Shown here in pieces: positions 21,473 through 40,605 of a stretch of 64,000 bases of DNA; position 1 is the stretch's first letter, and every line of letters starts with the position of its first letter. Source of the DNA: a bacterium. Its GTDB lineage: Bacteria > JAHJDO01. Under the pieces are notes generated by a model, which ran no database searches, was not told the DNA's origin, and saw only the letters and a program-made list of their open reading frames with translations. The translations under genes were made by a program, and so were the position numbers. Location: NCBI GenBank assembly GCA_030652805.1, contig JAUSPT010000024.1, forward strand, positions 37,050-101,049. The letters run 5' to 3'.

Positions 21473-22159
21473 ATGGCTAAGAGAACAATCTTAGTAGTTG
21501 ATGATGATCCTAATATCATTCAAGCGGTCTCTTTTGTTTTAAAAAAGGAAGGATATATAGTTACTACAGCTGTTGATGGAAAAGAAGCATTTAAAAAAGC
21601 TAAAGAAGAATTACCTCACCTAATTATTCTTGATGTTATGTTACCGAAACTGAGTGGATTTGAGGTCTGTAAACGATTAAAAGCTAATACTCAAACCAGA
21701 AAAATTCGTACTATTATGTTGACTGCTAGGAGTGAAGAAAAGGATAAAAGGTTGGGTGAGAAGTTAGGTGTGAATGCTTATATTACTAAACCTTATAATA
21801 TTGATGAGGTTCTATTTACAGTAAAGAGAGCTATAGAGAAAAAAGAATTACAGAGATCAATTGAAAAAATGAAAAAAGCAGCCTTGGTGGGGTATATGGG
21901 AGAGGCGATGTCTCATGAGATATTTAATCCTTTATCTGTTGTTTCTGGCTCCGTCCAACTTTTAATGAGCAGGATTAAAAAAGGCAAAAAGCTAACTACA
22001 AAAGAATATGAAGATTTCTTTAAAAATATTACTAAAAATGTAGAAAGGTGCATAGAGATTATAAATATTTTTAGGAAATTTTATGCATCTATAGGCATTG
22101 AGATTAAGCCTAGAAATTTAGAAGAAACGTTAAGGGATATATTGGAAGGCAAGATATGA
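21473..22159 (+). CDS. response regulator receiver with C-terminal HisKA-like dimerisation domain (no ATPase domain)
   Basis: ILVVDDDPN...LIILDVMLPKLSGFEV receiver; C-terminal EAMSHEIFNPLSVVSGSVQLL H-box-like. Confidence 0.7.
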   Translation: MAKRTILVVDDDPNIIQAVSFVLKKEGYIVTTAVDGKEAFKKAKEELPHLIILDVMLPKLSGFEVCKRLKANTQTRKIRTIMLTARSEEKDKRLGEKLGVNAYITKPYNIDEVLFTVKRAIEKKELQRSIEKMKKAALVGYMGEAMSHEIFNPLSVVSGSVQLLMSRIKKGKKLTTKEYEDFFKNITKNVERCIEIINIFRKFYASIGIEIKPRNLEETLRDILEGKI

Positions 22160-23229
22160 TTATGAGTAAAGAGTTTAGCAGAGCTCTGTTTGAGTACAAT
22201 CCTATTGAAACCGTAGTCGTGGATTTGGAAGGAAGAATAATCGACTTTAATCTGGCAAAAAAGAACTCAGGGGATAGATTGCCCAATATTGGGGATGGGA
22301 TGTACAAGGATTATGCAGCTCATCATGAGATTGACATGTATGCTGAATTGATAAAATGTATCAGAACAAGTAAGGTAAAAAAGTTTCCTGAGAAAAAATA
22401 TAAAAAGAGGTTTCTATCCATAACAATAGCTCCCTTTCCCAAAGGGGCAATTATAACATCTCTAGATGTCACCGAGCACAAGAAAGAGACAGAAATAGAG
22501 AGGAAAAGAGCTACAGAGGCGAAAAAGGATTATGAACAACTACAAGCCAATAAGGACGATTTGATTCGCTCCGAGAAACTTGCCTTTACCGGCCGCATAG
22601 CCGCAAATATTGCTCATGAGATAAGAAATCCCCTGACCAATGTAGCTATGGCAGTCCAGCAGCTTGGGAAAACCATTAAACAGGAAGGACACATTGCTAA
22701 ACATATGGACATCATTAAAAGAAACACAGAAAGGATTAACTATTTAATTACTGAACTCCTAAATTGTGCCCGCCCGCCAAAACTTAATATACAGCCATGT
22801 AATATTCATAAGGTATTAGAAGATATTTTAGAGTCCAACAAGACTAAGATTAGTTCAAAAAATATAAAGATAATTAAAAGGTTTACCTCTGACACATTCA
22901 TAATAAAGATTGATAAAGAACAAATGCAGCGTGCCTTCTTAAACATAGTCATCAATGCTATTGAAGCTATGCCCAAGAGAGGCAAATTGACCATTATTAC
23001 AGAGTTTAAGGGAAATCTTTTTGAGGTGAAGGTTCAAGATACAGGTAAAGGCATTCCTGAAGAAGATATTATCAGGATATTTGACCCTTTCTTTAGTTCC
23101 AAGTCCGGGGGTGTAGGCTTAGGATTGACTATATGTTATGGGATTATTGTGAGCCATGGCGGTACTATAGAGGTAGAAAGCAAGCCGAAAGAAGGGTCTA
23201 TCTTTATGGTATCTTTGCCAATTGGGTAA
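22156..23229 (+). CDS. sensor histidine kinase (PAS-like - HisKA - HATPase_c), cytoplasmic
   Basis: H-box IAHEIRNPLTNV, N-box, G-boxes DTGKGI/GVGLGL; start overlaps upstream stop (ATGA). Confidence 0.8.
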   Translation: MIMSKEFSRALFEYNPIETVVVDLEGRIIDFNLAKKNSGDRLPNIGDGMYKDYAAHHEIDMYAELIKCIRTSKVKKFPEKKYKKRFLSITIAPFPKGAIITSLDVTEHKKETEIERKRATEAKKDYEQLQANKDDLIRSEKLAFTGRIAANIAHEIRNPLTNVAMAVQQLGKTIKQEGHIAKHMDIIKRNTERINYLITELLNCARPPKLNIQPCNIHKVLEDILESNKTKISSKNIKIIKRFTSDTFIIKIDKEQMQRAFLNIVINAIEAMPKRGKLTIITEFKGNLFEVKVQDTGKGIPEEDIIRIFDPFFSSKSGGVGLGLTICYGIIVSHGGTIEVESKPKEGSIFMVSLPIG

Positions 23230-23326
23230 AGATCAAAAGTTAGAAAAAGTAAAATTTTGAGATAAAAAAGGCACAAAGTGACAAAGGCGCAAAAGATGCT
23301 CGTTTACATAACGGAGAGTGAATATA

Positions 23327-23407
23327 AACTCACCCTGACCCTCTCTTGAGTAGAGAGGGAATGTTCCCCTTCTCTGTCAAGAGAAGGGGCGAGGGGATGA
23401 GTTGAGT
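23327..23407. repeat. composite inverted pair of a short dispersed repeat (second copy at 60721-60753)
   Basis: AAACTCACCCTGACCCTCTCTTGAGTAGAGAGGG ... CCCCTTCTCTGTCAAGAGAAGGGGCGAGGGGATGAGTTGAGTT. Each half is a hairpin (CCCTCTC..GAGAGGG) plus GGGTGAGTT tail, matching 60721-60753 in both orientations. Confidence 0.55.
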
Positions 23408-23439
23408 TCACTAAATATTTACGACGACGGAGTGTAATA

Positions 23440-24048
23440 GTGGAAATAAAATATGATATTAGAAGAGGCGCAGATATATATCGGGCAATTTATGGAGCTC
23501 GATTACAGAAATGGATTCTTGCAGGTAAGATAAAGCGAGGAGAAGTAATTGTCTGGCGAAGCGGTCTTTCAGGCTGGCGCAAAGCCGAAGAACTTGAAGA
23601 ACTGGCGCCATTTTTTGAACAGTGGGAAAAAGAACAATTAAGAGAAACAAAGAGGCAAAAAGAGCAAGTCTTCTTAAGGAAGAAACAGAAGAAGATAAAG
23701 AATATTTTGATAATAGACGATGAGAAGGATTTGTGTTCGCTCCTGTCTGACGCCTTAATCCAGAGAAACTACAATGTATCGATTGCAAACACAAAAAGAG
23801 AAGCTATGGCTTATCTTAAAAAGAAATCACCTGATTTAGTTCTGTTAGACCTAAAACTACCTGATGGCGATGGAATAAAAATCCTTCCTAGGATCAAAAG
23901 GGTAAATCCAGAGACAGTAGTGATTGTAATTTCTGCCTATGGAAGCGAAGAAAGCAGACAAATGGCAAAAAAGGGAGGAGCTTTTACCTTTATAAACAAG
24001 CCGTTTACTGAAGAAGATATATTAAGGAGTATAAAAGTACTCTCATAA
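23440..24048 (+). CDS. response regulator: N-terminal DUF4339/GYF-like domain, K/E-rich linker, receiver domain
   Basis: GWRKAEELEELAPFF (DUF4339-like), then ILIIDDEKD...LLDLKLPDGDG receiver. Confidence 0.65.
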   Translation: MEIKYDIRRGADIYRAIYGARLQKWILAGKIKRGEVIVWRSGLSGWRKAEELEELAPFFEQWEKEQLRETKRQKEQVFLRKKQKKIKNILIIDDEKDLCSLLSDALIQRNYNVSIANTKREAMAYLKKKSPDLVLLDLKLPDGDGIKILPRIKRVNPETVVIVISAYGSEESRQMAKKGGAFTFINKPFTEEDILRSIKVLS

Positions 24049-24059
24049 CAGAGGGCAGC

Positions 24060-25439
24060 ATGGAGACGATTCTAATAGTAGATGATGAGAAGGACTTGCG
24101 TTTTAATCTTTCCAACATTTTGAAGGACGAAGGTTACAACGCAATCGCTGTGGGAGACGGAAGGAAAGCGCTTAATGCAGTTAAGAAAAATTCTCCCAAT
24201 TTGGTCCTGCTGGATATGAAGCTTCCTGAAATGGATGGGATGCAGATTCTAGAGAAGATGAAGCTGATTGATAAGGATTTGATTATTATAATGCTTACTG
24301 CTTATGGAAATCTAAATGGAGCGGTAAAAGCAATGAAATTAGGGGCATTTGACTATCTTGCCAAGCCTTTTGATAATGAAGAATTAATTCTTGTAATAAA
24401 AAGGGCTCTTCGGACCCAATATTTAGCCAAGGAAGTAGAAACTCTAAAAAAACGGGTTGGTGAAAAAATTACAGCAGAAGAGCTAATGGGAGAAAGCCCT
24501 CAAATAAAGCAAGTCTTAAAACAGATTAAGATAATTGCTCCGACCAATATGACTGTAATACTTCAAGGTGAAAGCGGAACAGGCAAGGAATTGATTGCTC
24601 AGATGATCCATCAGGAAAGTCCGCGAAAAAATGACCCTTTTATTGCTATAGACTGTGGCGCAATTCCCGATACATTGGCTGAGAGTGAACTCTTTGGTCA
24701 TGAGAAAGGCGCCTTTACAGGAGCTGATGCTCAAAAAGAAGGCAGGTTTGAAGAGGCTAATGGAGGAACTCTGTTTCTGGATGAGATTACAAATCTCTCT
24801 TCTACTACGCAGAGAAAACTTCTCAGAGTGATACAGGAAAGAAGGCTTCAGCATATAGGCGGCAAGAGAAGTATAAAAGTTGACGTCAGAATAATCGTGG
24901 CTACGAACATTAATCTCTCAGGCGCGGTAAGGCGGGGTAAATTTAGAGAGGACCTCTTCCATAGGTTAAATGAATTTCATATTTCACTTCCCCCGCTTCG
25001 GGAAAGAAAAGATGACATCCCCCATTTAGCCATGCGTTTTTTGGGGGGAGGAAATCAGGAATTAAATAAAAAAATAGAAGGGTTTTCTTCTGATGTAATG
25101 AAATTGCTTCTGGATTATCCCTGGCCGGGCAATGTTAGAGAATTAAAGAATGTAGTCAGAAAAGCAGTGCTTCTGTGCGATTCCAATCATATCAAACCGG
25201 AACACTTTCCATTAGATAATATTGCTTCCACTAAAAAGCTTGAATTTCAGCAGGATTTGGATAAAGGAGTCTCCCTCAAAGAGATAACTAAAAAAGCGAC
25301 AGGACAGATAGAAAAGGAAGCTATTGAGCAAGCACTGGCAAAAGCCGGCGGCAATAAAAGTAAAACCGCCAAAATCCTCAAAATAGACCGCATGACCCTC
25401 TATTCTAAGATGAAGGAATATCAGATACGTAGACTGTAA
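24060..25439 (+). CDS. sigma54-dependent transcriptional activator, NtrC family (receiver - AAA+ - Fis-type HTH). Candidate gas-vesicle regulator, GvrA-like
   Basis: Receiver LLDMKLPEMDG; Walker A GESGTGKE; GAFTGA motif; ESELFGHEKGAFTGA; C-terminal HTH KTAKILKIDRMTLYSKMK; immediately upstream of a sigma54 promoter and gvpA. Confidence 0.9.
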   Translation: METILIVDDEKDLRFNLSNILKDEGYNAIAVGDGRKALNAVKKNSPNLVLLDMKLPEMDGMQILEKMKLIDKDLIIIMLTAYGNLNGAVKAMKLGAFDYLAKPFDNEELILVIKRALRTQYLAKEVETLKKRVGEKITAEELMGESPQIKQVLKQIKIIAPTNMTVILQGESGTGKELIAQMIHQESPRKNDPFIAIDCGAIPDTLAESELFGHEKGAFTGADAQKEGRFEEANGGTLFLDEITNLSSTTQRKLLRVIQERRLQHIGGKRSIKVDVRIIVATNINLSGAVRRGKFREDLFHRLNEFHISLPPLRERKDDIPHLAMRFLGGGNQELNKKIEGFSSDVMKLLLDYPWPGNVRELKNVVRKAVLLCDSNHIKPEHFPLDNIASTKKLEFQQDLDKGVSLKEITKKATGQIEKEAIEQALAKAGGNKSKTAKILKIDRMTLYSKMKEYQIRRL

Positions 25440-25701: not shown

Positions 25702-25717
25702 TGGCACGGAATTTGCT
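25702..25717 (+). promoter_or_regulatory. sigma54 (RpoN) -24/-12 promoter of gvpA
   Basis: TGGCACGgaatTTGCt. Exact match to TGGCACG-N4-TTGCW with correct GG/GC spacing; about 113 bp upstream of gvpA ATG; NtrC-type activator encoded immediately upstream. Confidence 0.8.
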
Positions 25718-25830
25718 TTTACAATACAGATGGTCGCAGATGAAAAATCGCAGATGGGTACAGATGTTCAATCTGCGCTGGTCTGTGAAAATAATCTGCG
25801 CTAATCTGTGAAAGAGGGGAGGTGGAAAAA

Positions 25831-26037
25831 ATGGCAGTAGAAAAAGCAATCGGTTCATCTAGTTTGGTTGAGGTTATTGACAGAATCCTTGACAAGGGTG
25901 TTGTGGTTGATGCATGGGTTAGAATTTCTTTAGTTGGTATTGAATTACTCGCTATTGAAGCAAGAGTCGTAGTCGCATCAGTCGAGACATACCTGAAGTA
26001 TGCTGAAGCAATTGGTCTAACCGCAACAGCAGCTTAA
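25831..26037 (+). CDS. gvpA: gas vesicle structural protein GvpA
   Basis: [60 protein letters not shown]. Near-identical to the canonical GvpA core; AGGTGG RBS before ATG 25831 (ORF track starts at upstream GTG). Confidence 0.95.
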
Positions 26038-26226
26038 GTATAGTTTAAAAAAAGGATTCTTGCCGAGCCACCCTTTTGAGCGCAGATTGGCGCAGATGTA
26101 AAAGACAGATGCACACAGAGAAATCTGTGATAATCAGCGTAAAAAAATCAGTGTTAATCTGTGGTTTAAACAGCATGGTTCGCCAAGAGATTCCTTTTTC
26201 CGTTCTGAGAAAAAAGGGGTAAAATT

Positions 26227-26925
26227 ATGGGAAGTGCCGAGGAAATGAAGAATTTGGCGCAAGGAATTGTTTCTTCTTATCAGGCCAGAGTTTCTGAAGT
26301 AGCCACGGTCATGGACAATGCTCACCAAATTCTTGAAGATTTTAAGCTCAAAAGAAGTGAGATGAGCAGTCAACTTAGAGAAACCCTTGCCAATGGAGAG
26401 TCTCTCAGAAAAAAGGATTTTGATAATATGATGAAAGGCATCCTTTCCCATCAAGAAGAAAGAGAAAAAGAGGTAAAAGATTTATTAAAGACTTTTTTTG
26501 AAGAACAAAAAGAAATAGCTGAAGCCATTAGGAAGAATTTGGCCGAAGGCGAAAGCGTGAGAATAAGTGATTTTAAAAAGATGCTCCAGGATATTCAGGC
26601 AAGGCAGAAACTCAGGGAAAATGAAGTAAGAACGACCCTAAAGGAATTTCAGGAAGGACATAGGGAGATGGCTGAGTCTTTGCACAGCCTTTTAAATAAA
26701 GAAGAGTCCTTACGGATTGAGGACTTTAAAGAGATGCTAAAAGATATTCGTTCAAGACAGATAGAGCGGAAAAAAGAAGTCAGAACCAAACTTGATGAAT
26801 TCAGGAAAGAACATCAAAATATGACTTCCGAATGGAATAAACTAACCGGTCTTATGGCCGAGAAAAGAGCCAGCAAGCTGAGAGGAGGTGAGAGAGAGGA
26901 AAAGTTGGAAGTTGCCAGGGTTTAA
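26227..26925 (+). CDS. tandem-repeat coiled-coil protein, candidate GvpC-like gas vesicle scaffold/strengthening protein
   Basis: Three ~50-aa repeats of pattern L..GES.R..DFK.ML.DI..RQ..RE.EVR..L.EF...H..M; hydrophilic, predicted all-helical; directly downstream of gvpA as gvpC is in cyanobacteria. Confidence 0.5.
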   Translation: MGSAEEMKNLAQGIVSSYQARVSEVATVMDNAHQILEDFKLKRSEMSSQLRETLANGESLRKKDFDNMMKGILSHQEEREKEVKDLLKTFFEEQKEIAEAIRKNLAEGESVRISDFKKMLQDIQARQKLRENEVRTTLKEFQEGHREMAESLHSLLNKEESLRIEDFKEMLKDIRSRQIERKKEVRTKLDEFRKEHQNMTSEWNKLTGLMAEKRASKLRGGEREEKLEVARV

Positions 26926-26995
26926 TTTTGGATCCTGGGTAAGTAACCTGATGTATGGGAACTAAGAAACTAGAAGTTTAAGAGGAGGAATAAAG

Positions 26996-28027
26996 ATGGG
27001 AATAGCAAGTGATATCAAAGCACTGGGTGAGGACATTGTTGCCTCTTATGATACGCGAGTAAGGGCGATAGGTGTGCTTGTCAAGGACGTCGACAAAATG
27101 CTTAAGGGTCTTCATACGGATCATAAGAGTATGGCTGCCAATCTTAAAGCTGGCCTTAACAAGGGAGAAGAAGATAGGCTCAATGCCTTTAAGCCAATGA
27201 TAGCAGAAATTCAGAAGCGGACAAAGGAAATAGAAGTCTATGTTAAAACTCTGCTCAAAAAGTTTCACAGCGAGCATATGGAAATGTCTGCCAATCTTAA
27301 TGCCTCTCTTGCAAAAGGAGAAGAGGATCGACTTAAGGACTTTAGAGCAATGATGGCTGATGTTAAGAAGTTTGTAGCGGATATGGTTGATACGACTGCG
27401 AAACTGATGAAGCAAATTCAGGCTGAACAGAAAGATAGAAATAAAGGAGTAGCTGATCTCCTTGCAAAGTTTGCGCAAGACCATGCATCTATGGCAGATG
27501 AGCTTAGAAAAAGCCTTGCAAAAGGAGAAACAAACAGGCTTGAAGACTTCAAAAAGATGATAGATAGTATCCAAAAATATGTGGCTGATGTAATTAGTGC
27601 GACTAAGCAGCTAATTAGCGAAATTCAAGCAAGGCAGGATGAGAGAAACAAAGAGGTTCTTGCTCTCTTACAGGCATTCCAGGCCGAAAGAGAAAAGATG
27701 GCTGCTAACTGGCAGGCTCTGGCTGCAACAATGGAGAAGAGAAGAGGCGGTAAGCCGATTCCAGTTAAAGTAGAAGCCAGGCAGGAAGTAAAGACTGTTG
27801 AAGAGGCAGTGAAAGAAAAACCCAAAGCTAAACCTAAGGCTGGGCCTAAACCCAAAACACCTGAAGGTCAGATATTAGCTTTGCTTAGGGAGCATGCTGA
27901 AGGCATGAGCTTGCCGAATTTAGGAAATGAAGCAGGCTGCCACTTTATAAAGCTGACCAGTCCAATGAGAGGTCTGCTGGATAAAGGCAAAGTTAGAAAA
28001 GAAGATAATCTTTACTTTATTGCTTAG
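26996..28027 (+). CDS. tandem-repeat coiled-coil protein (paralog of 26227 gene) with K/P-rich linker and C-terminal winged-helix-like domain
   Basis: Repeats ...SLAKGEEDRLKDF.AMM.D..K.V.D...; KPKAKPKAGPKPKTPEG linker; C-terminal ILALLREHAEGMSLPNL... Confidence 0.5.
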   Translation: MGIASDIKALGEDIVASYDTRVRAIGVLVKDVDKMLKGLHTDHKSMAANLKAGLNKGEEDRLNAFKPMIAEIQKRTKEIEVYVKTLLKKFHSEHMEMSANLNASLAKGEEDRLKDFRAMMADVKKFVADMVDTTAKLMKQIQAEQKDRNKGVADLLAKFAQDHASMADELRKSLAKGETNRLEDFKKMIDSIQKYVADVISATKQLISEIQARQDERNKEVLALLQAFQAEREKMAANWQALAATMEKRRGGKPIPVKVEARQEVKTVEEAVKEKPKAKPKAGPKPKTPEGQILALLREHAEGMSLPNLGNEAGCHFIKLTSPMRGLLDKGKVRKEDNLYFIA

Positions 28028-28043: not shown

Positions 28044-28364
28044 ATGAGCGAGATAAAATGTGCTTTCTGCAAAGGCACGGGCAAGGATCCATTTGATCTT
28101 CTATCCGAGCTTGCTGTCTGCCAGGTTTGCGGAGGCAGGGGTAAAGTTGAGGTAAAAGAGCCGGCAATCAAGTGTGTCTTTTGTAGCAGCACCGGTATCT
28201 ATCCTCGTAGTCGAGTTACCTGCACTGTATGTAATGGCAAAGGAATGGTTGCGGTTAAAGGCGCGACTGACGAGTGCCCTAAGTGCAAAGGCACAGGCAG
28301 AGCAATAGATAGCGGACTTCCCTGCATTAAATGTGGAGGCAAAGGGGTCGTTTCAAAAAAATGA
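28044..28364 (+). CDS. DnaJ-type cysteine-rich zinc-finger (CxxCxGxG repeat) protein
   Basis: Six CxxC(x)GxG motifs (CAFCKGTG, CQVCGGRG, CVFCSSTG, CTVCNGKG, CPKCKGTG, CIKCGGKG), as in DnaJ CR domain. Confidence 0.7.
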   Translation: MSEIKCAFCKGTGKDPFDLLSELAVCQVCGGRGKVEVKEPAIKCVFCSSTGIYPRSRVTCTVCNGKGMVAVKGATDECPKCKGTGRAIDSGLPCIKCGGKGVVSKK

Positions 28365-28586: not shown

Positions 28587-29507
28587 ATGGCAGCTGTTGA
28601 GGAGATGACCACAGTACTTGAACCAAGTCCTTTATCAGACTTTGTGGAAACAAAGTATGTGAAGGATGTCACTAATCGGACACTTTCCTATATTAAGGCC
28701 GGTTTTCCGGTCCATTTTCGAGGTCCTTCAGGGACAGGAAAGACCACTCTGGCTATGCATGTAGCCAGTAAGGTTAAAAGGCCGGTGGTAATGATTCACG
28801 GGGATGAAGAGTTTACAACCTCTGATTTGGTGGGTGGTGAACATGGCTACAGGTTTAGAAAGGTTGTAGACAGATTTGTCTCCAGGGTGTTGAAAGTGGA
28901 AGAAGATATGGTAAAGCGCTGGGTGGATAACCGTTTAACGGTTGCCTGTAAGTATGGTTTTACCCTTATCTATGATGAATTCACACGTTCCCGTCCTGAG
29001 GCAAACAATATTCTTCTCTCTATTTTGCAGGAGAAGATGATGGATCTGCCAGTGGGAAGAGGCGGAGAAGAACCGTATTTAAAGGTTGACCCTGATTTTA
29101 CCGCTATTTTCACATCAAACCCTGAGGAATATGCCGGAGTTCATCGGAGTCAGGACGCTCTTAGGGACAGAATGATAACCATGGATTTGGACCATTTTGA
29201 TTATGATACGGAAATAGGTATTACCAGGGCAAAATCCAAACTCTCTAAACAAGATTCTGAGAGGATAGTTAATATTGTAAGAGGATTGAGGGAATCAGGA
29301 AAGTGTGAGTATGCACCAACCGTACGCGGCTGTATTATGATTGCTAAGACGCTTAAAGTTCTGGGCACTGCTCCTGCTAAGAGTAATGGTTCCTTCAGCG
29401 CGATGTGTCAGGACATATTGGCTTCTGAGACCAGTAGAGTTGGCTCAAAGACGAATCAGGACAGGGTAAAGGGGATAGTTAAGGAGTTGGTTAAGAAATA
29501 TAGTTAA
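28587..29507 (+). CDS. gvpN: gas vesicle protein GvpN (AAA+ ATPase)
   Basis: Walker A GPSGTGKTTLAMHVA, Walker B LIYDEF; length and position typical of GvpN (CbbQ/NirQ-like AAA+). Confidence 0.88.
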   Translation: MAAVEEMTTVLEPSPLSDFVETKYVKDVTNRTLSYIKAGFPVHFRGPSGTGKTTLAMHVASKVKRPVVMIHGDEEFTTSDLVGGEHGYRFRKVVDRFVSRVLKVEEDMVKRWVDNRLTVACKYGFTLIYDEFTRSRPEANNILLSILQEKMMDLPVGRGGEEPYLKVDPDFTAIFTSNPEEYAGVHRSQDALRDRMITMDLDHFDYDTEIGITRAKSKLSKQDSERIVNIVRGLRESGKCEYAPTVRGCIMIAKTLKVLGTAPAKSNGSFSAMCQDILASETSRVGSKTNQDRVKGIVKELVKKYS

Positions 29508-30127: not shown

Positions 30128-30148
30128 CAACTGCATAGGTGGTTGAGA

Positions 30149-30541
30149 ATGAATTGGAACACATTTGACTTTAAAAGCGGGAAAAGCGGAAGAACCAGGT
30201 CAGGACGAAGGATAGGTGAGATTTTGGAAGGGGATAAGTTTAGATGTTCATTATGCAGAGGCACAGGGATATTACCCCGAACCAAGGGCACAAGATGTCA
30301 TGTATGTAAAGGCTCAGGCATAGTTTCCTTAACCGGACCGGCAGTAGTATGCGCTTACTGCAAAGGCAGAGGCGATTATCCGCCGAGGACAAGTCTTACC
30401 TGTACGGTTTGCGGAGGGAAGGGTTTAGTTAGCATTACCAAACCCATTGAAATATGCGAACATTGCCGGGGAACCGGTGCTGAGCCGGGCAATAAACTAC
30501 CTTGCTTAAAATGCAAAGGTAAGGGTGTGATTACAAAATAG
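30149..30541 (+). CDS. DnaJ-type cysteine-rich zinc-finger protein (paralog 2)
   Basis: CSLCRGTG, CHVCKGSG, CAYCKGRG, CTVCGGKG, CEHCRGTG, CLKCKGKG; AGGTGG RBS, ATG at 30149. Confidence 0.7.
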   Translation: MNWNTFDFKSGKSGRTRSGRRIGEILEGDKFRCSLCRGTGILPRTKGTRCHVCKGSGIVSLTGPAVVCAYCKGRGDYPPRTSLTCTVCGGKGLVSITKPIEICEHCRGTGAEPGNKLPCLKCKGKGVITK

Positions 30542-30558: not shown

Positions 30559-30816
30559 ATGAAAATAGAAGAAGTAGAGAAGGCGATCACAGATTTCTTT
30601 AAGAGCAGTCTTGGTGGAAAGGCAAAAGTAATAAAGATAGTAAAATCTCAGGATGGCTGGACAGGTGAGGCAGAGATTTATGAGGAGAGTTCATTTATTA
30701 AATCTTTAGGACTATCTACCAGAGTTCAGGATAGGAATATTTACGGGATTAAATTGACTGATGCCTTGGAAGTGGTCTCTTACGCGCGAAAAGAGGGATC
30801 TGTAAAAGAGGAATAA
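30559..30816 (+). CDS. GvpO/GvpR-like gas vesicle protein
   Basis: DGWTGEAEIYEESSFIKSLGLSTRVQDRNIYGIKLTDALEVVSYARKE resembles GvpO core (GW.A.VEVVER...DTQD..GRYE..LD...V.GY.R.RR). Confidence 0.55.
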   Translation: MKIEEVEKAITDFFKSSLGGKAKVIKIVKSQDGWTGEAEIYEESSFIKSLGLSTRVQDRNIYGIKLTDALEVVSYARKEGSVKEE

Positions 30817-31132: not shown

Positions 31133-31441
31133 ATGACCAGTATGGAGCGTGAGACTTTAGATGTTATTGCTGAAAATGAGGAGAGAGTCCATTATTACTT
31201 AATAGCTCAGGAATTAAAGGTAAGCGCTCATTATGCCTATGTGATTTGCAAAGGGCTTGAGAGAGACAAATATGTTGATTTTGATACATTTAAAGGAGTA
31301 TGCAGCTTAACAGAAAAAGGTAAAGAAACAGTGGAAGAGAATTGGCTTTTTAAACTTAAGCAGCAAAAGCAGAATATTCAGAAGAGAAGAAAAGAAAATA
31401 AGGGAAAAATTTCTAAGAATGTTGAGGTTGTAAATTATTAA
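31133..31441 (+). CDS. small winged-helix DNA-binding protein (MarR/ArsR-like)
   Basis: LDVIAENEERVHYYLIAQELKVSAHYAYVICKGLERDKYV. HTH + wing pattern; basic C-terminus. Confidence 0.5.
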   Translation: MTSMERETLDVIAENEERVHYYLIAQELKVSAHYAYVICKGLERDKYVDFDTFKGVCSLTEKGKETVEENWLFKLKQQKQNIQKRRKENKGKISKNVEVVNY

Positions 31442-31444
31442 GAC

Positions 31445-31657
31445 GTGAGTATAACAGCTACAGAATTAGAAATACTAAGAATTATAAAAAAGAAAAACGG
31501 TTTAATATCTATGAAAGAGTTAAGCAGTAAAGCAGGGTTTGAGATAGGCTATACCTACATGTTGTGCAAGTCCCTGGAAAAGCAGGATTGTATTGGGTTT
31601 TTTACCCATTCATCTTGTAGAATAACTGCAACAGGCAAAGGTCTGATAAGCGAATAG
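31445..31657 (+). CDS. small winged-helix DNA-binding protein (paralog)
   Basis: ELEILRIIKKKNGLISMKELSSKAGFEIGYTYMLCKSLEKQDCI. Same HTH pattern as the 31133 gene. Confidence 0.5.
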   Translation: MSITATELEILRIIKKKNGLISMKELSSKAGFEIGYTYMLCKSLEKQDCIGFFTHSSCRITATGKGLISE

Positions 31658-31666
31658 GAGGTCGAA

Positions 31667-32053
31667 ATGAGCTGGCAAACAATGGAGTGGAATAAACAAA
31701 AGATCGGGCGCAGAGGAGAGATTTTAACCAGGGATGTCTACAGATGCGGTTTTTGTAGAGGCACAGGTCTCCTTTCTTCTAAAAAGGGGATAAAATGTCC
31801 TGTTTGTTTAGGTAATGGAGAGGCAAAGGTTTCATCTCCGGCTGTAATTTGCGCTTATTGCAATGGAACGGGAAAAAGACATCCTCGAACTACCCTCACC
31901 TGTACTGTTTGCCGAGGAAAGGGTGTTGTGAGCGTGGGAACTTCTGATATTGAAGCTTGTCCTACTTGCAAAGGAATAGGCAGGGAACGCGGCAGGACTC
32001 TTCCCTGTTTAACCTGCAAAGGGACAGGCGTTATTCCTAAAAAGAAGAGATAA
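31667..32053 (+). CDS. DnaJ-type cysteine-rich zinc-finger protein (paralog 3)
   Basis: CGFCRGTG, CPVCLGNG, CAYCNGTG, CTVCRGKG, CPTCKGIG, CLTCKGTG. Confidence 0.7.
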   Translation: MSWQTMEWNKQKIGRRGEILTRDVYRCGFCRGTGLLSSKKGIKCPVCLGNGEAKVSSPAVICAYCNGTGKRHPRTTLTCTVCRGKGVVSVGTSDIEACPTCKGIGRERGRTLPCLTCKGTGVIPKKKR

Positions 32054-32085
32054 TATTTTAGTATTAAATGTACAGGGAGAAAAAA

Positions 32086-32604
32086 ATGGCTAAAGAAAAG
32101 AAAAAAAATGAAGAAGCGGTAGGTTTTGATTTTGGCATTGGTGGGCTGTTTAAAGGTATTGAGAAATTAGTTGACCTGGCAGCAGATTTAAAAGAGGCCG
32201 GAGGGGAGATTAAGAAAGAAGGCGAAATAGACCTGAGCCATCTTAAGAAAGGGATGAAGGGAGTATTTGGATTTTCTGTAAAAAGCGCGGTGGGAGGAAA
32301 ACCAACAGTTGAGACATTCGGCCACAAAATTAAGAAGACCCCTGAAGGTCCCACGGTTGAAGAAGAGAGAGAGCCTATCATAGATGTATTTGATGAAAAA
32401 GAAGAGATCCGAGTCTATGCTGAGATGCCGGGGGTAAATGACGAGTCTATATCGGTTGATTTAAAAGGGGATATATTAGAAATAACAGCTGTAAGTAAGG
32501 ATAGAAAATACCGCAAGGAAATTTTGCTTCCTGCTAAAGTTGAATCTAAAACTTTAGAGAGGAGTTTTAAAAACGGTATCTTAGAAATAAAAATAAAGAA
32601 ATGA
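32086..32604 (+). CDS. gvpH: Hsp20/alpha-crystallin-domain protein, GvpH-like
   Basis: C-terminal ACD: IDVFDEKEEIRVYAEMPGVNDESISVDLKGDILEITAV...ERSFKNGILEIKIKK; RBS AGGGAG before ATG 32086 (ORF track starts at 32068). Confidence 0.75.
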   Translation: MAKEKKKNEEAVGFDFGIGGLFKGIEKLVDLAADLKEAGGEIKKEGEIDLSHLKKGMKGVFGFSVKSAVGGKPTVETFGHKIKKTPEGPTVEEEREPIIDVFDEKEEIRVYAEMPGVNDESISVDLKGDILEITAVSKDRKYRKEILLPAKVESKTLERSFKNGILEIKIKK

Positions 32605-32607
32605 TAT

Positions 32608-33543
32608 ATGGCATTAACAGGATTAAGAGAAGATGCGTTAAAACTGGTTTTATTTGGAGGGAAGGGCGGCGTAGGAAAGACAACCTGTGCATCAAGCACA
32701 GGCTTTTATTTAGCAAAGAATTTCAGGACATTGCTTTTTTCAACAGACCCGGCACATTCGCTCTCTGATAGTTTAGAGCAGGACATTGGCAGTAACATAA
32801 TAGAGGTGAAAGGGACAAAAAACTTGAGTGCTTTTGAAGTAAGCGCAGAAAAAGCTCTTTCTAGATTCAAGATAGAACATGAAGACCAGATAAAAAAGAT
32901 TTTGGATACCTCTACCTATTTAGATGAGGAAGACATTGATTCCATCTTTGATTTGCCTATTCCCGGGATGGATGAAGTGATGGGGTTCAAGACAATTGTT
33001 GATTTAATAGAGGAAGCTAAGTTTGACAAGTACATTGTAGATACCGCGCCTAGCGGTCATGCGATGAGACTTCTGACTTTACCTGACCTGCTGGATGACT
33101 GGGTCAAGGTTATGGCAAAGATGAGATGGAAGTATAGATATATGGTGGAAAGATTTGGCGGAAGATATAATCCTGACGAAGGCGATGATTTCTTATTAAC
33201 TATGAAAAAGACCGTAAAGAGAATAGAAAATCTTCTTAAGGATCAAAAAAGGTGTGAATTTATAGCAGTTACCATTCCGGAAGATATGGCAATTTTAGAA
33301 ACCGGGAGAATGATAAATAATTTGAACGACTATGGCATAAAAGTGAGGCAATTAGTAATAAATAATGTTGTAGAATCGCAGGATTGCGGATTTTGTAGAG
33401 AAAGAAGAAAAGGGCAGGAGAAACATATAAACAGGATAATGAAAAAGTTTGATGACTTAAAAATAACAATTGTCCCTTTGCAATCAAGGGAGGTTAAAGG
33501 TATAGATACCTTGAATAATTTTAAAGAGATGCTATTTCAATAA
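32608..33543 (+). CDS. ArsA/Get3-family P-loop ATPase (single ATPase domain)
   Basis: Deviant Walker [11 protein letters not shown]; ArsA/Get3 signature [12 protein letters not shown] (cf. DTAPTGHTLRLL); [11 protein letters not shown]. Confidence 0.75.
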
Positions 33544-35711
33544 TGGGAAAAAAGAACTCAGCTCTTACACTTAAAGTAAAAGAAGCTCTGCCAAAGGATG
33601 CAGGAAGGGCTATCGCCAGGATTGACCCGGAAGATATGAAAACTCTTGGAATAGAAGTGGGCGAGGTTGTAGAGATTGACGGTAAAAGAAAAACTCCTGT
33701 CAAAGCAATGCCATCTTACGTAGAAGATAGAGGGAAAAAGACTATTCAAATGGATGGAATATCCAGAGAGAATGCGCAGATTGGACTGGATGAAAAGGTA
33801 AAGATCAGCAAGATTGACTATAAGTCTGCTAACAAAATCACACTCTCGCCTCTAACTGCATCAAGTCTGCTTCAAAGAGATAAAGATACCAGATATATCG
33901 GGTCGCTTATGGAGGGGCTTCCTGTAACCAGCGGCGATAGGATTAGAGCTACGCTTTTTGGCTCAAGATCCTGCGATTTTAAGGTGCTGGATACTATTCC
34001 TGCGGGTGTAGTTTTAATAAACCAGACTACTTCAATAAAGATGAAGACAAAGGGAGCAGAAAAAGAGAGGTCAGCCAAAGTTTCATATGAAGATATTGGC
34101 GGGCTTGATAAGCCAATCCAAAGAATCAGGGAGATGATAGAGCTTCCTTTAAAATATCCTCAAGTATTTGAAAGATTAGGAATTGATCCGCCGAAAGGCG
34201 TTTTTCTCCATGGTCCTCCGGGTTGTGGAAAAACCTTAATCGCTCGGGCCGTGGCTAATGAAACAGATGCTTATTTTACCAGCATAAGCGGACCGGAAAT
34301 TATGGGGAAGTTTTATGGGGAGAGCGAAGCTCGCCTCCGTTCCATATTTGAAGATGCTCAGGCACATGCGCCTGCTATCATATTTTTGGATGAGATTGAA
34401 TCTATTGCTCCAAAAAGAGAAGATATGGGCGCTGAAAAACAGGTTGAGCGAAGAGTAGTAGCTCAGCTTCTGGCTCTGATGGATGGATTAGAATCAAGGG
34501 GACATGTTGTTGTTATAGCTGCAACCAATTTGCCTAATACAGTTGATCCGGCTTTGAGACGGCCAGGCCGTTTTGACAGAGAATTATCTATCCCTATTCC
34601 GGATAAAAATGGGCGATTAGAAATTTTACAGATACATACAAGAGGAATGCCTTTGGCAGAAGATGTGAGTTTAGAGAGATTAGCTGAGATTACTCATGGA
34701 TTTGTGGGCGCGGATTTAGAATCATTAGCAAGAGAAGCAGCAATGTCAGCGTTAAGAAAGATTTTGCCTAAGATAGATTTTGAATTAGCGGAGATACCTT
34801 ATGAGACTCTTTTAGAATTGCAGGTTACTATGGACAATTTTTTGGAGGCATTGAAAGAAATAGAGCCTTCTGCTATCCGCGAGGTATTTGTTGAGATTCC
34901 TGATGTCCGGTGGGATGAGGTTGGTGGATTAGATGAAATAAAGAAGTCTTTAATTGAAGCCGTGGAATGGCCTCTTAAATACAGCAGATTATTTGAGCAC
35001 GTCAAAACAGAGCCGCCTACAGGCATTTTGCTCTCCGGTTCTCCGGGTACGGGAAAGACTTTGGTAGCCAAAGCATTAGCTACTGAGAGCGGGGTTAATT
35101 TTATTTCTGTTAAAGGCCCTGAGATTATAAGTAAGTATGTGGGTGAGTCAGAACGCGCTGTCCGTGAGATATTTAAAAAGGCAAGAATGGCTGCTCCATG
35201 TATTTTATTCCTGGATGAAATAGACAGTCTGGTTCCTACACGCGGAAGCGCTGGAGGGGATTCACAGGTAACCGAGAGAGTGATCAGCCAATTTCTTACC
35301 GAACTTGGAGGGATAGAGAGATTAAAGGGCGTAGTAGTGATTGGTGCGACCAATAGATTAGATATGATAGACACCGCAGTATCAAGGGCGGGAAGGTTTG
35401 ATATCCATTTAAACTTTCCATTACCTGATAAAAAGACAAGACTCAGAATTTTTGAAATTCATGCTAAAGACAAACCATTAGATAAAGATGTAAATTTAGA
35501 AAAATTAGCAGATCAAATAGAAGAATATTCCGGAGCAGATATTGAAGCTGTTTGCCGTCGCGCGTCTATGCTTGCTATAAGAGGATATATAGAAAATCAA
35601 AAGGCAAAAAGCAAAGATCAAAAATTAGAACTCAAGATATCAAAGAGCAATTTTGAAGAAGCTATTAGTTTACTAAAAGAACAGAAGAACGAAATAAAGG
35701 GGGGTGGTTAA
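33543..35711 (+). CDS. CDC48/VCP-like AAA+ ATPase (N-domain + D1 + D2)
   Basis: CDC48-N-like start; two AAA modules with Walker A GPPGCGKT and GSPGTGKT, Walker [20 protein letters not shown] regions; archaeal/eukaryotic-type architecture. Confidence 0.85.
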
Positions 35712-35862: not shown

Positions 35863-36867
35863 ATGGCTGAAATTGGAAAATATATTTATGGAATTATAAG
35901 TTCTAATACGAACTTCCGCCTTTTTATCTCGGAGGATAGCATACATGCGATTCCTTATCAGGATATCTCGGCTGTAGTAGGAGACTCTGAGATAATCGAT
36001 TACACCTGTATATCTAAAGGTGATGTGGCGAAAATGCTGGTCAGGCATCAAAAGGTTATTGAAGGCGTTATGAGTTCAGGGCTTACAATTATTCCTATGA
36101 AATTAGGTACATTCGCTGTTTCGGAAATTGAGGTCAAAGATATTTTGGATAGAGGATATAACCTCATTAAGGAGATTATGGAGAAGACGGGCGATAAAAT
36201 AGAGATTGATATAGTCGCCACATGGAGTGATTTTCCTTCAATTCTTAAAGAGGTTGGGGAAGAGAGAGAAATTAAAGAATTCAAAGAAAGGCTTTTAGCT
36301 AGTCCAAAAGAGATAACCATAACTGAGCAAATGAAAGTAGGGCTTATGGTTAAGAAAGCATTGGATACAAGAAAAGAAAAATATGCTGAAAAGATAAAGA
36401 ATGCACTGGAAACTCTAAGCCAGGATCTAAAGTTGCATGAACTCATGGACGATAATATGGTTGCTAATATAGCCTTTTTGATAAATAAAACCCGGCAAAT
36501 AGAATTTGATAAAAAGATAGAAGACCTAAACACTGAATTTCACGATGAGTTAAATTTTAGATGTATAGGTCCGCTTCCGCCTTATAGTTTCTATACGCTT
36601 GAGATAAAAAAGATGAAATTTGACGAGATTGATTGGGCAAAAAAGAAGTTGAGGTTAAATGATTTTGCAGGTAAAGATGAAATTAAGAAAGCTTATCGAA
36701 GAGTAGCCGCCTCTTCCCATCCTGATAGAAATCCGGATATACCGGCTAAAATTTTTGATGATGTAAACAAAGCTAATAAGATACTTATTGATTATTGCAA
36801 AGCTCGTGAACAAGCAGGCGAGGAAGAATTTGAAAAGAACGCAATATTGATCAAAGTGAGGGAGTAA
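35863..36867 (+). CDS. GvpF/GvpL-family protein fused to C-terminal DnaJ J-domain
   Basis: N-terminal YIYGIISS...AIPYQDISAVV (GvpF/L hallmark); C-terminal KKAYRRVAASSHPDRNPD...ANKIL J-domain with HPD tripeptide at nt 36718-36726. Confidence 0.8.
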   Translation: MAEIGKYIYGIISSNTNFRLFISEDSIHAIPYQDISAVVGDSEIIDYTCISKGDVAKMLVRHQKVIEGVMSSGLTIIPMKLGTFAVSEIEVKDILDRGYNLIKEIMEKTGDKIEIDIVATWSDFPSILKEVGEEREIKEFKERLLASPKEITITEQMKVGLMVKKALDTRKEKYAEKIKNALETLSQDLKLHELMDDNMVANIAFLINKTRQIEFDKKIEDLNTEFHDELNFRCIGPLPPYSFYTLEIKKMKFDEIDWAKKKLRLNDFAGKDEIKKAYRRVAASSHPDRNPDIPAKIFDDVNKANKILIDYCKAREQAGEEEFEKNAILIKVRE

Positions 36868-38414: not shown

Positions 38415-38653
38415 TGTTTTTAATTGATGATATATTCCTTGCGCCATTGAAAGGGGTGGTTTGGCTTGGCAAGAAGATGAATGAGGTTATAGAGAAGGAA
38501 ATCTCTGATGAAGGGCGGATAAAAGAGAAACTTATGGAATTACAAATGCAGTTTGAACTTGATGAAATAAACGATGAAGAATATAAGAAGCAGGAAGAAG
38601 AACTTTTAGCGCGATTGGACGCTATTAGAAAAGCAAAAGAAGAGGAGGTGTGA
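38414..38653 (+). CDS. gvpG: gas vesicle protein GvpG
   Basis: MFLIDDIFLAPLKGVVWLGKKM... typical GvpG N-terminus; ATG overlaps upstream TAA. Confidence 0.8.
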   Translation: MFLIDDIFLAPLKGVVWLGKKMNEVIEKEISDEGRIKEKLMELQMQFELDEINDEEYKKQEEELLARLDAIRKAKEEEV

Positions 38654-38913
38654 AGATGGCTAATATGGAAGAAGCTAAGAAAGCAGTTGCAGAGTTTTTA
38701 AAAAAGACCCTTAATGTCAAAGATGTAAAGGTTATTAAGGTTGGAAAGAGCGAAAAGGGCTGGGAGACAGAAGCAGAAGTATATGAAGAAAGTTCATTTA
38801 TAAAGGCTCTCGGACTTCCAACAAGAGTAAAGGACCGGAATATCTATGAGATTAAATTGGATGATAAGTTGGAAGTAGAGTCTTACGAACGTAAAAAGGA
38901 AGAGAAGGAATAG
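38650..38913 (+). CDS. GvpO/GvpR-like gas vesicle protein (paralog of 30559)
   Basis: KGWETEAEVYEESSFIKALGLPTRVKDRNIYEIKLDDKLEVESYERKKEE. About 55% identical to 30559 product. Confidence 0.55.
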   Translation: MKMANMEEAKKAVAEFLKKTLNVKDVKVIKVGKSEKGWETEAEVYEESSFIKALGLPTRVKDRNIYEIKLDDKLEVESYERKKEEKE

Positions 38914-40038: not shown

Positions 40039-40605
40039 ATGGATGAAGAAAAAAAGCGAAATCCTGAGAAGCAAAGAGATAAAAAGAAAGAACCTGGTAG
40101 AGAAAAGGAAGAGGGTATAGCAGGAGAAACTCTTAAAGGGATTGGTAAGATGATTCCAGGATTGGGTGGATTGTTCAGGGGTCTGAGAAAATCTCCAGTA
40201 TTCAAAGAAAGATTAAAAAAGATTGATGAAGAAGTAGAGCGCAAGTTGAAGGAAGCTCCCTTAGAAAAGACAGAAAAAGGAAAATTTAAGATAGAGGGAA
40301 AGTTTGAAGCAAGGCATTTAGCTCCAGATAAACCATTTATGAGAAAGGAAGTTTCTCCTCCAATGCCACAGGAAAGGTCAGCAGATATTTTTGACGAGGA
40401 AGATCATATTAAAATAATAGCTGAAATCCCCGGCGTAGATGCAAATGATATAAATCTTAATTTGCAAGGGAATAAACTTACTATATCTGTAGATACCCTT
40501 GACCGTAAATATCATCAGGAATTGAAACTACCCTGCGAACCTAAAGGGGAATTGCAGAAGTCTTATAAGAATGGGATCTTAGAAGTAAAGATAAAAAAGG
40601 AATAA
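40039..40605 (+). CDS. Hsp20/alpha-crystallin-domain protein, GvpH-like (paralog 2)
   Basis: ADIFDEEDHIKIIAEIPGVDANDINLNLQGNKLTISV...QKSYKNGILEVKIKKE. Confidence 0.75.
   Translation: MDEEKKRNPEKQRDKKKEPGREKEEGIAGETLKGIGKMIPGLGGLFRGLRKSPVFKERLKKIDEEVERKLKEAPLEKTEKGKFKIEGKFEARHLAPDKPFMRKEVSPPMPQERSADIFDEEDHIKIIAEIPGVDANDINLNLQGNKLTISVDTLDRKYHQELKLPCEPKGELQKSYKNGILEVKIKKE

Follow-up and report, generated by a model that had tools for sequence, protein, structure and literature searches.

The 64,000-nucleotide stretch of contig JAUSPT010000024.1 analysed here (the window, with positions counted from its first letter) carries a bacterial gas-vesicle (gvp) cluster in which two open reading frames (ORFs), ORF1 and ORF2, directly follow gvpA, and it raises the question of what these two genes encode and whether their products are related to GvpC. 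GvpC coats gas vesicles and sets their stiffness, shape and collapse pressure, and acoustic reporter genes and biosensors are engineered mainly through it. The only well-studied types of this protein are the cyanobacterial one, built of repeats of 33 amino acids (aa), and the haloarchaeal one (PMC9994262, PMC10903477, PMC9501494). An original prediction, made from the letters of the window, had described ORF1 and ORF2 as hydrophilic, tandem-repeat coiled-coil proteins sitting in the place of gvpC, and had proposed that they are scaffold or reinforcing proteins of the vesicle that are not homologous to GvpC. The GvpC-like part of this idea turned out to be well supported by gene context, while the absence of homology is probably wrong. 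Our comparisons indicate, with considerable confidence, that ORF1 and ORF2 did not arise independently of GvpC but are its remote homologs, in which the repeats have become longer; we stop short of greater confidence because the link to GvpC runs through intermediate proteins. With somewhat less assurance, the two would probably be a duplicated, highly diverged pair of the GvpC superfamily, of the cyanobacterial lineage, in which the 33-residue repeat was lengthened in 18-residue steps to 51 and 69 residues. The family that they represent is a third, unannotated GvpC type, large and distributed over many uncultivated phyla. As far as sequence allows us to judge, both proteins are most likely rib-binding and shell-reinforcing, located on the outer side of the shell and parallel to its ribs.

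The connection with cyanobacterial GvpC is provided by members of the family with short repeats. A hidden Markov model (HMM) of cyanobacterial GvpC scored at least 15 bits with 31 of 395 family members, the maximum being 48.8, against values not higher than 11.8 bits for reversed copies and 7.9 bits for shuffled copies, and among all ORFs of the loci considered it touched family members only. The high scorers bear the N-terminus and the C-terminus of the family, including a winged helix, and their central repeats are exactly 33 aa long (an example, from protein P0183, is SSGRQQMSDEQAKSLAGFVNDLTKNVQNMLKAF); the termini are those of ORF2, with E-values of 1e-33 to 1e-43. A profile made from an alignment of twelve of these 33-aa-repeat proteins was compared by hhalign with the profiles of both sides. 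It matched the family profile of ORF2 (REP2) at 100% (E 3.7e-60), that of ORF1 (REP1) at 99.5% (E 2e-22) and cyanobacterial GvpC at 95.6% (E 1.3e-8), in the last case over 104 collinear columns starting at the N-terminus, so that the conserved N-terminal segment of these relatives aligns collinearly with the N-terminus of GvpC; reversed-profile controls gave 0.3% (E about 0.2). It is this bridge that makes the label non-homologous probably wrong. Moreover, P0183 lies above the curated cutoff of TIGR02641 gvpC_cyan_rpt (19.6 vs 18.8 bits), and some proteins are mosaics that hold both 33-aa and 51-aa units, such as P0002, a protein with 60% full-length identity to ORF2. Pfam PF01304 misses even the 33-aa-repeat members (E <= 0.01), which are found by the NCBIfam repeat model and by the custom HMM, and it is absent from the 25 families most matched by 23 REP2-profile sequences in a scan at E <= 10. 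No canonical GvpC was found in the window or in the related loci.

At the residue level, the 33-aa consensus of the family, F...Hk.MS.EqaK.LA.FV.dL.k.V..mLkg, can be laid on the Anabaena repeat in a single best register (mean BLOSUM +12.3, the next best being -2.0), in which L4, F11, L12, R19, Q26, L30 and F33 of GvpC correspond to conserved L, M, L, H/R, Q, L and F, respectively. In the alanine mutagenesis of Huber et al., the Leu set (L4, L12, L30), the Phe pair (F11, F33) and R19 were each needed for gas-vesicle stabilisation, and in the docking model of the same authors the conserved Q26 contacts GvpA (PMC9994262).

The two ORFs are indeed adjacent to gvpA and built of tandem helical repeats, as had been predicted (the positions of their parts are given in Table 1), and both are hydrophilic and charged. 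Their sequences identify them as paralogs (31% identity, E 3e-33). A head motif, F..x[H/R/Q]..M, recurs at aa 39, 90, 141 and 192 of ORF1, with a period of 51, and at aa 39, 90, 159 and 228 of ORF2, with periods of 51, 69 and 69, and GES.R motifs are located at aa 57, 108 and 159 of ORF1. When units were compared with units by BLASTP in both ORFs, identities of 37-51% and E-values of 1e-8 to 1e-22 were obtained, the best being that between the two 69-aa units of ORF2, which are 47% identical over 68 aa (E 1e-22). A 69-aa unit is a 51-aa unit with an 18-aa insertion. No repeats were found at the DNA level, so the protein repeats are old and diverged. In the terminal block of ORF2, 122 sequences show E231 and W239 to be invariant and R232, M235 and A236 nearly so. 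Among 395 sequences, the head-to-head spacings most often encountered are 51 (42%), 69 (12%), 33 (11%) and 102 (6.5%), the last being twice 51; unit lengths thus follow a 33 + 18n series, with some exceptions. Scans against Pfam and NCBIfam matched neither ORF to any curated family, phasins or other unrelated families included, and returned only sub-threshold coiled-coil noise (Vps5, Baculo_PEP_C, SOGA).

The term coiled-coil used in the original prediction is imprecise. Hydrophobicity recurs every 3.63-3.64 residues (z = 6 in ORF1 and z = 11.7 in ORF2 when compared with shuffled sequences), and there is almost no power at 3.50 (7.5 vs 145 at the peak for ORF1, 11.5 vs 212 for ORF2), so these are not heptad coiled coils. 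The 3.64 period is coherent over 215-249 residues, and the best period falls between 3.62 and 3.68 in all of the 121 family members tested. The result is a straight hydrophobic stripe, as expected of helices that lie on a surface. An insertion of 18 aa, which makes five turns, holds the stripe in phase (51/14 = 3.64, 69/19 = 3.63), and the conserved F, H/R, M, L, L, G, R, F, M and I, as derived from their positions, fall within an arc of ca. 100 degrees. The corresponding comparison with GvpC is uninformative, since five copies of the Anabaena consensus peak at 3.30 and 3.67 and Halobacterium GvpC has a weak peak at 3.5.

In the AlphaFold2 (AF2) model of ORF2, built from an alignment of 122 sequences, aa 2-249 form essentially one helix with a short break at 53-55, followed by a disordered linker and a winged helix, so that the K/P-rich linker and the winged-helix-like C-terminus described in the original prediction were both recovered. 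The topology of the C-terminal domain is helix-helix-helix-strand-strand, and by Foldseek it superposes on MexR/MarR, Rv2887 and Z-alpha domains with a root-mean-square deviation of 1.0-1.7 Å; the original idea of a winged helix is borne out, the model showing the three helices and the beta-hairpin wing of a MarR-like domain. The cutoff of Pfam MarR_2 is passed by the homolog P0045 (29.5 vs 27 bits) and not by ORF2 itself, whose winged helix deviates from the family consensus at many conserved positions. Among REP2 orthologs, which vary in repeat number, 56 of 121 C-termini consist of an acidic E/P-rich linker and a winged helix, and the other 65 of a K/R/G-rich tail with a median net charge of +9. 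For ORF1, AF2 predicts helices at aa 4-56, 62-106, 113-157 and 164-216, broken at each GES motif (predicted local distance difference test, pLDDT, 69.6; predicted template modelling score, pTM, 0.55), and when this model was used for a fold search, all matches were to designed helical bundles or SMC coiled coils.

Gene context ties the family to gas vesicles. The scan of species-representative genomes yielded 23 true loci, once L024 (Gemmatimonadaceae) had been dropped as a false positive of the pattern scan. The position of the family is that of gvpC: it lies directly 3' of gvpA in 18 of the 18 related loci with upstream sequence and is followed by gvpN in 16 of the 16 with downstream sequence, the usual order being gvpA - REP1 - REP2 - zinc finger - gvpN. 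Departures from this order were noted in L011:10001-11404, where REP1 is followed by two tandem REP2-type genes, in L007:7773-9518, where the REP2-type gene precedes the REP1-type one, and in L021:3868-5431, from a metagenome-assembled genome (MAG) of Patescibacteria, where the zinc-finger gene separates the pair. The loci occur in MAGs of more than 12 phyla, labelled Actinomycetota, Elusimicrobia, Omnitrophota, Nitrospinota, Nitrospirota, Phycisphaerae, Aerophobetes, Bacteroidota, Thermodesulfobacteriota, Ignavibacteriales, Latescibacter and Patescibacteria, among others. ORF1 has 261 homologs, mostly of 229-234 aa, and each ORF has some 260 relatives at 90% clustering; an exhaustive profile search rendered 1511 clusters at 50% identity, 805 of them with E <= 1e-10. 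In the databases these proteins were encountered as hypothetical, as generic gas vesicle protein or under spurious names (YukE, YhgE, FliJ, RmuC, nucleoid DNA-binding protein), and ORF1 is identical to Q7J67_01465, a hypothetical protein of an unclassified bacterial MAG at NCBI. The family PF28101, listed for several homologs, is a faint CdiI-like match that we consider spurious. Literature searches gave no description of this family, a tblastn search of ORF2 against 72,556 plasmids gave no match, and in a sequence search of the PDB neither the family profile nor the GvpC consensus found anything significant.

These observations can be put together in the following mechanism. ORF1 and ORF2 would be co-transcribed with gvpA from a sigma-54 promoter, and each protein would form a long amphipathic alpha-helix with a single conserved face running straight along it at 3.64 residues per turn. 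This face, which would carry F, H/R, M, L, L, G-E, R, L, F, M and I, may lie on helix alpha-2 of GvpA along the shell rib, as cyanobacterial GvpC does. A repeat of 33 aa (49.5 Å) spans four GvpA subunits at 12.1-12.7 Å each (PMC9994262, Huber et al.), and units of 33, 51 and 69 residues could cover about four, six and eight subunits, respectively; for the 51-aa unit the arithmetic fit is good (76.5 Å vs 72.6-76.2 Å for six subunits). Such covering would tie adjacent GvpA subunits and raise the collapse pressure. The linker and winged helix of ORF2, or the K/R-rich tail in many orthologs, would probably contact other Gvp proteins, other GvpC molecules or a polyanion. An extended and clearly more speculative version, which we consider unlikely as a whole, is that the quantised 33 + 18n repeats serve as molecular rulers by which the GvpA rib is measured out in blocks of 4, 6 or 8 subunits, each 18-residue step providing five helical turns, about 27 Å, or roughly two subunits; that REP1 and REP2 make up a two-component outer cage; and that the winged helix or poly-basic tail of REP2 connects the vesicle with the GvpN machinery or with a polyanion, for instance the nucleoid. 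To our knowledge, such a link of the vesicle surface is not known for any GvpC.

Compared with GvpC of Anabaena/Dolichospermum flos-aquae, ORF1 and ORF2 share the position of the gene between gvpA and gvpN (the Dolichospermum locus, L029, is gvpA x3-gvpC-gvpN), an all-alpha tandem-repeat structure, the placement of L, F, R and Q on one helical face following a 0-4-7-11-15-18-22-26-29-33 pattern, a probable remote homology, seen through the 33-aa-repeat members, and a GvpA partner that is 82% identical. They differ in having units of 51 and 69 instead of 33 aa, two paralogs instead of one gene, the disordered linker and winged helix added to ORF2, and a G-E-x-x-R motif, conserved in each unit, which cyanobacterial GvpC does not have; the hosts are uncultivated and belong to non-cyanobacterial phyla, and the operon is predicted to be sigma-54 dependent, unlike that of cyanobacterial GvpC. 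The haloarchaeal protein (PF05465; Halobacterium salinarum pNRC100) is encoded in the same order, gvpA-gvpC-gvpN, and combines repeats with an extended linker and, at the C-terminus, a compact domain (PMC10903477). Its architecture parallels that of ORF2 in that the C-terminal domain is of a DNA-binding fold type, Ros/MucR zinc-finger-like in one case and winged helix in the other. The domain of the pNRC100 protein (L027:22804-23952) lies above the Pfam ROS_MUCR cutoff (28.3 vs 25.4 bits), so two unrelated GvpC types both end in a DNA-binding-fold domain, which in the haloarchaeal protein has been reported to contact GvpN, GvpO and GvpC (PMC9501494). On the other hand, the haloarchaeal repeats are acidic and of 32-40 aa, the C-terminal fold is another one, and similarity is lacking in sequence and in profile: hhalign against Halobacterium GvpC gave 0.26% with the REP2 profile and 0.2% with the 33-aa-repeat profile, and PF05465 Halo_GVPC did not match the family while it gave 244.8 bits with its positive control, Halobacterium GvpC.

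Several observations weigh against assigning ORF1 and ORF2 to the GvpC superfamily as rib-binding proteins. In direct comparison, neither PF01304 nor TIGR02641 is matched by either ORF (E <= 0.1), the cyanobacterial GvpC HMM gives only ca. 5 bits for ORF2, and hhalign against cyanobacterial GvpC yields 2.1% with the REP2 profile, over a 17-residue motif only, and 0.1% with the REP1 profile. The comparison with GvpC profiles therefore fails for the family profiles themselves and succeeds for the 33-aa-repeat relatives, homology resting on these intermediates; had the value of 2.1% been taken alone, without them, it would have backed the original idea of non-homologous proteins. In addition, helical repeat proteins readily give spurious profile matches, an artefact against which the reversed-profile controls speak in this case. 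The AF2 model of ORF1 suggests an up-and-down bundle and not an extended rod, unlike that of ORF2, and since the two proteins are folded differently by the program, the units could in solution form either one rod or a hairpinned bundle; weak sub-threshold matches to apolipophorin, apolipoprotein and BAR families agree with a bundle. The fit to the rib worsens with length, a 69-aa unit measuring 103.5 Å against 96.8-101.6 Å for eight GvpA subunits, and minority spacings of 58, 65 and 66 aa are present among the 395 sequences. Moreover, the paralog pair is kept almost everywhere, a retention that this assignment does not explain. Finally, the host organism is uncultivated and the proteins are known here from their genes, from which we infer their location on the vesicle.

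Three rival explanations were considered, each of which is less well supported than the relationship with GvpC. It could be that ORF1 and ORF2 are true GvpC analogs of independent origin, whose likeness is the product of convergence from binding the same GvpA surface. Binders of one lattice could plausibly converge on an L/F/R face with a period of ca. 11/3, the window proteins have no direct profile similarity to cyanobacterial or haloarchaeal GvpC, and these two belong to separate Pfam families (PF01304 and PF05465), so that GvpC is itself in part a functional label. This origin is nonetheless improbable in our opinion, given that the 33-aa-repeat members are collinear with GvpC from the non-repeat N-terminal segment through the repeats (95.6%, against 0.3% for the reversed profile), that the same proteins share the termini of ORF2 at E 1e-33 to 1e-43, and that mosaics of 33-aa and 51-aa units such as P0002 exist. 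To a similarly low degree we entertain that the proteins are exchangeable helical bundles, apolipoprotein- or phasin-like, that are active in vesicle assembly without being permanent parts of the shell. Apolipoproteins and phasins (ApoLp-III, ApoA-I, PhaP/PhaF) resemble the window proteins in their long amphipathic helices with a non-heptad stripe of ca. 11/3 that suits a surface, and in the closed bundle that is possible for ORF1 according to AF2, whose model shows a four-helix arrangement with turns at each GES motif and finds its best fold matches among long designed helical bundles. Matches to ApoLp-III, Apolipoprotein A1/A4/E, perilipin, PhaP_Bmeg and BAR are recurrent, and the cluster is unusually rich in chaperones. 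All those matches are, however, sub-threshold, no such family being reached at its curated cutoff (the best values among homologs are 30.3 vs 36.3 bits for ApoLp-III, 27.7 vs 90 for Apolipoprotein and 22.2 vs 28.3 for PhaP_Bmeg), and the chain of homology leads to GvpC, a surface protein. The target would also differ, being a lipid or a polyester in one case and a protein lattice in the other, and the window family is strictly tied to gvp genes. The conserved face, with its invariant Arg, Gly-Glu pair and His/Arg, suits the Glu-rich alpha-2 helix and is less suited to a purely hydrophobic surface; with its Arg and Gly-Glu pair it also fits docking on alpha-2 better than the core of a bundle.

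The remaining alternative, for which we see slightly less room still, is that ORF2 is mainly a nucleic-acid-binding protein, through its winged helix or through the basic tail of its orthologs, and serves as a regulator of the gvp operon or as a tether between vesicle and nucleoid for positioning and inheritance. There is a precedent in Pseudomonas, where the phasin PhaF, an amphipathic helix with a basic tail that binds DNA, tethers polyhydroxyalkanoate granules to the nucleoid for their positioning and inheritance. The C-terminal fold of ORF2 is MarR/Z-alpha-like, with MarR_2 above its cutoff in a homolog, the winged helix (56/121) and the basic tail (65/121) are alternative modules of the kind typical of polyanion binders, and repeated sequence motifs flank gvpA. 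Against such a role, ORF1 and many orthologs have the same conserved repeat face without bearing the module, the cluster already possesses dedicated regulators, and many conserved positions of the family consensus are not kept in the winged helix of the window. Haloarchaeal GvpC, too, bears a domain of DNA-binding fold (Ros/MucR), which is reported to bind GvpN, GvpO and GvpC (PMC9501494).

With ORF1 and ORF2 placed in the GvpC superfamily, the annotation of these gvp clusters would be corrected, and GvpC would be seen to be more widespread than current models detect. Natural repeat lengths of 33, 51 and 69 on an almost invariant GvpA surface would offer a handle on how repeat length and registry with GvpA control the mechanics of the shell. 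The family is of interest for gas-vesicle biology and for the engineering of acoustic reporters.

Table 1. Positions, in the window, of ORF1, ORF2, their parts and the adjacent features of the gvp cluster
Feature	Position	Strand	Evidence or remark
Sigma-54 type -24/-12 promoter, TGGCACGGAATTTGC	25702..25716	+	~115 nt 5' of gvpA
Sister stem-loop, 5' untranslated region of gvpA	25718..25815	+	RNA fold -41.4 kcal/mol, z = -7.6
gvpA, major gas-vesicle shell protein	25831..26037	+	Directly 5' of ORF1; Pfam Gas_vesicle 2e-16, NCBIfam GvpA 1e-38
Long stem-loop, gvpA-ORF1 spacer	26075..26172	+	RNA fold -31.6 kcal/mol, z = -5.7
ORF1 (REP1), 232 aa, short-tailed, three and a half 51-aa units	26227..26925	+	
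ORF1 conserved N-terminal segment, aa 1-38, common to ORF2 and the whole family	26227..26340	+	Family alignments
ORF1 three full 51-aa units, aa 39-89, 90-140, 141-191	26341..26799	+	37-50% identical, E 1e-10 to 1e-14
ORF1 partial fourth unit, aa 192-216, with family-wide invariant Trp W203	26800..26874	+	
ORF2 (REP2), 343 aa, helical repeats, linker and winged helix	26996..28027	+	
ORF2 units of 51 aa (aa 39-89) and 69 aa (aa 90-158, 159-227)	27110..27676	+	Head motifs L39, F90, F159
ORF2 terminal partial unit, aa 228-249, FQAEREKMAANWQALAATMEKR	27677..27742	+	Most conserved block of the family
ORF2 K/P-rich linker, aa 250-288, predicted disordered	27743..27859	+	pLDDT about 40
ORF2 C-terminal winged-helix domain, aa 289-343	27860..28024	+	AF2 pLDDT about 90
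Small DnaJ-type CXXCXGXG zinc-finger protein	28044..28364	+	Between ORF2 and gvpN; Pfam DnaJ_CXXCXGXG 2.7e-11
gvpN, AAA+ ATPase, closes the gvpA-(gvpC-like)-gvpN block	28587..29507	+	TIGR02640 GvpN 1e-101

With regard to expression, TGGCACGGAATTTGC is the only match without mismatches to TGGCAC-N5-TTGC in the 64-kb window. An NtrC-type response regulator/sigma-54 activator is encoded directly upstream of it (24060-25439), response-regulator and histidine-kinase genes are found at 21473-24048, and homologous activators are located upstream of gvpA in many related loci. The promoter probably drives gvpA, ORF1 and ORF2 under the control of the adjacent activator; no terminator-like sites were found on the + strand between gvpA and gvpN, and ORF2 has a strong Shine-Dalgarno sequence, AGGAGG, 7 nt upstream. 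The two stem-loops of ca. 95 nt around gvpA are made of repeated CAGATnnnGCAGATG and AATCTGnGnTnATCTGTG motifs, and no Rfam family was matched when the sequences on both sides of gvpA were scanned. In 13 of the 16 gvpA-REP1 spacers tested, that of the window included, the RNA folds at least 2 standard deviations better than shuffled sequences, which suggests that the structure of this spacer is a transcript stabiliser or an attenuator through which the amount of GvpA is set relative to that of the proteins encoded downstream.

The gvp cluster extends on the + strand from ca. 25700 to ca. 44700 of the window. The ORF of gvpA was listed as 25822-26037, starting at GTG 25822; the ATG at 25831, which yields the canonical N-terminus MAVEK, is the probable true start. 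The protein is 82% identical to GvpA of Dolichospermum, and the segment of helix alpha-2, on which GvpC docks, is identical. The DnaJ-type zinc-finger gene that follows ORF2 keeps the same position in most related loci. Further 3', the cluster contains GvpJ-like genes, a GvpO-like gene, GvpG, GvpK and four GvpF/L genes, together with Hsp20s, an ArsA-like ATPase and a CDC48-like ATPase.

Genes of chaperone type are unusually many in the cluster (28044-28364, 30143-30541, 31667-32053, 32068-35711, 35863-36867, 40039-40605). They encode three small DnaJ-type CXXCXGXG zinc-finger proteins, Hsp20 at 32068-32604 and 40039-40605, two ATPases, of which one is ArsA/Get3-like and the other a CDC48-like double AAA+ protein, and a fusion of GvpF/L with a J-domain, and this set is syntenic across phyla, which hints at a dedicated pathway for the targeting or insertion of GvpA. 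The C-terminus of the product of 42831-44039 (+) is ArsA_HSP20-like, with a weak, sub-threshold match.

Two adjacent genes at 31133-31441 and 31445-31657 (+) encode small winged-helix-like proteins that are paralogs of each other (E 1e-7), have sub-threshold matches to MarR and HTH_24 and are kept in several related loci; these stand-alone proteins have no detectable relation to the C-terminal domain of ORF2. The genes at 30559-30816 and 38650-38913 (+) encode paralogous small proteins with the motif EESSFIK(S/A)LGL, of which the second lies above the Pfam GvpO cutoff (27 vs 25 bits). For the first no family match was obtained; GvpO-like genes thus appear to be duplicated in the cluster. An unusual fusion is encoded at 41728-42834 (+), where a GvpA/J-type domain (Gas_vesicle 4e-17) is joined to PH/GRAM/Vps36-GLUE-like domains and a C-terminal CxxC...CxxC motif.

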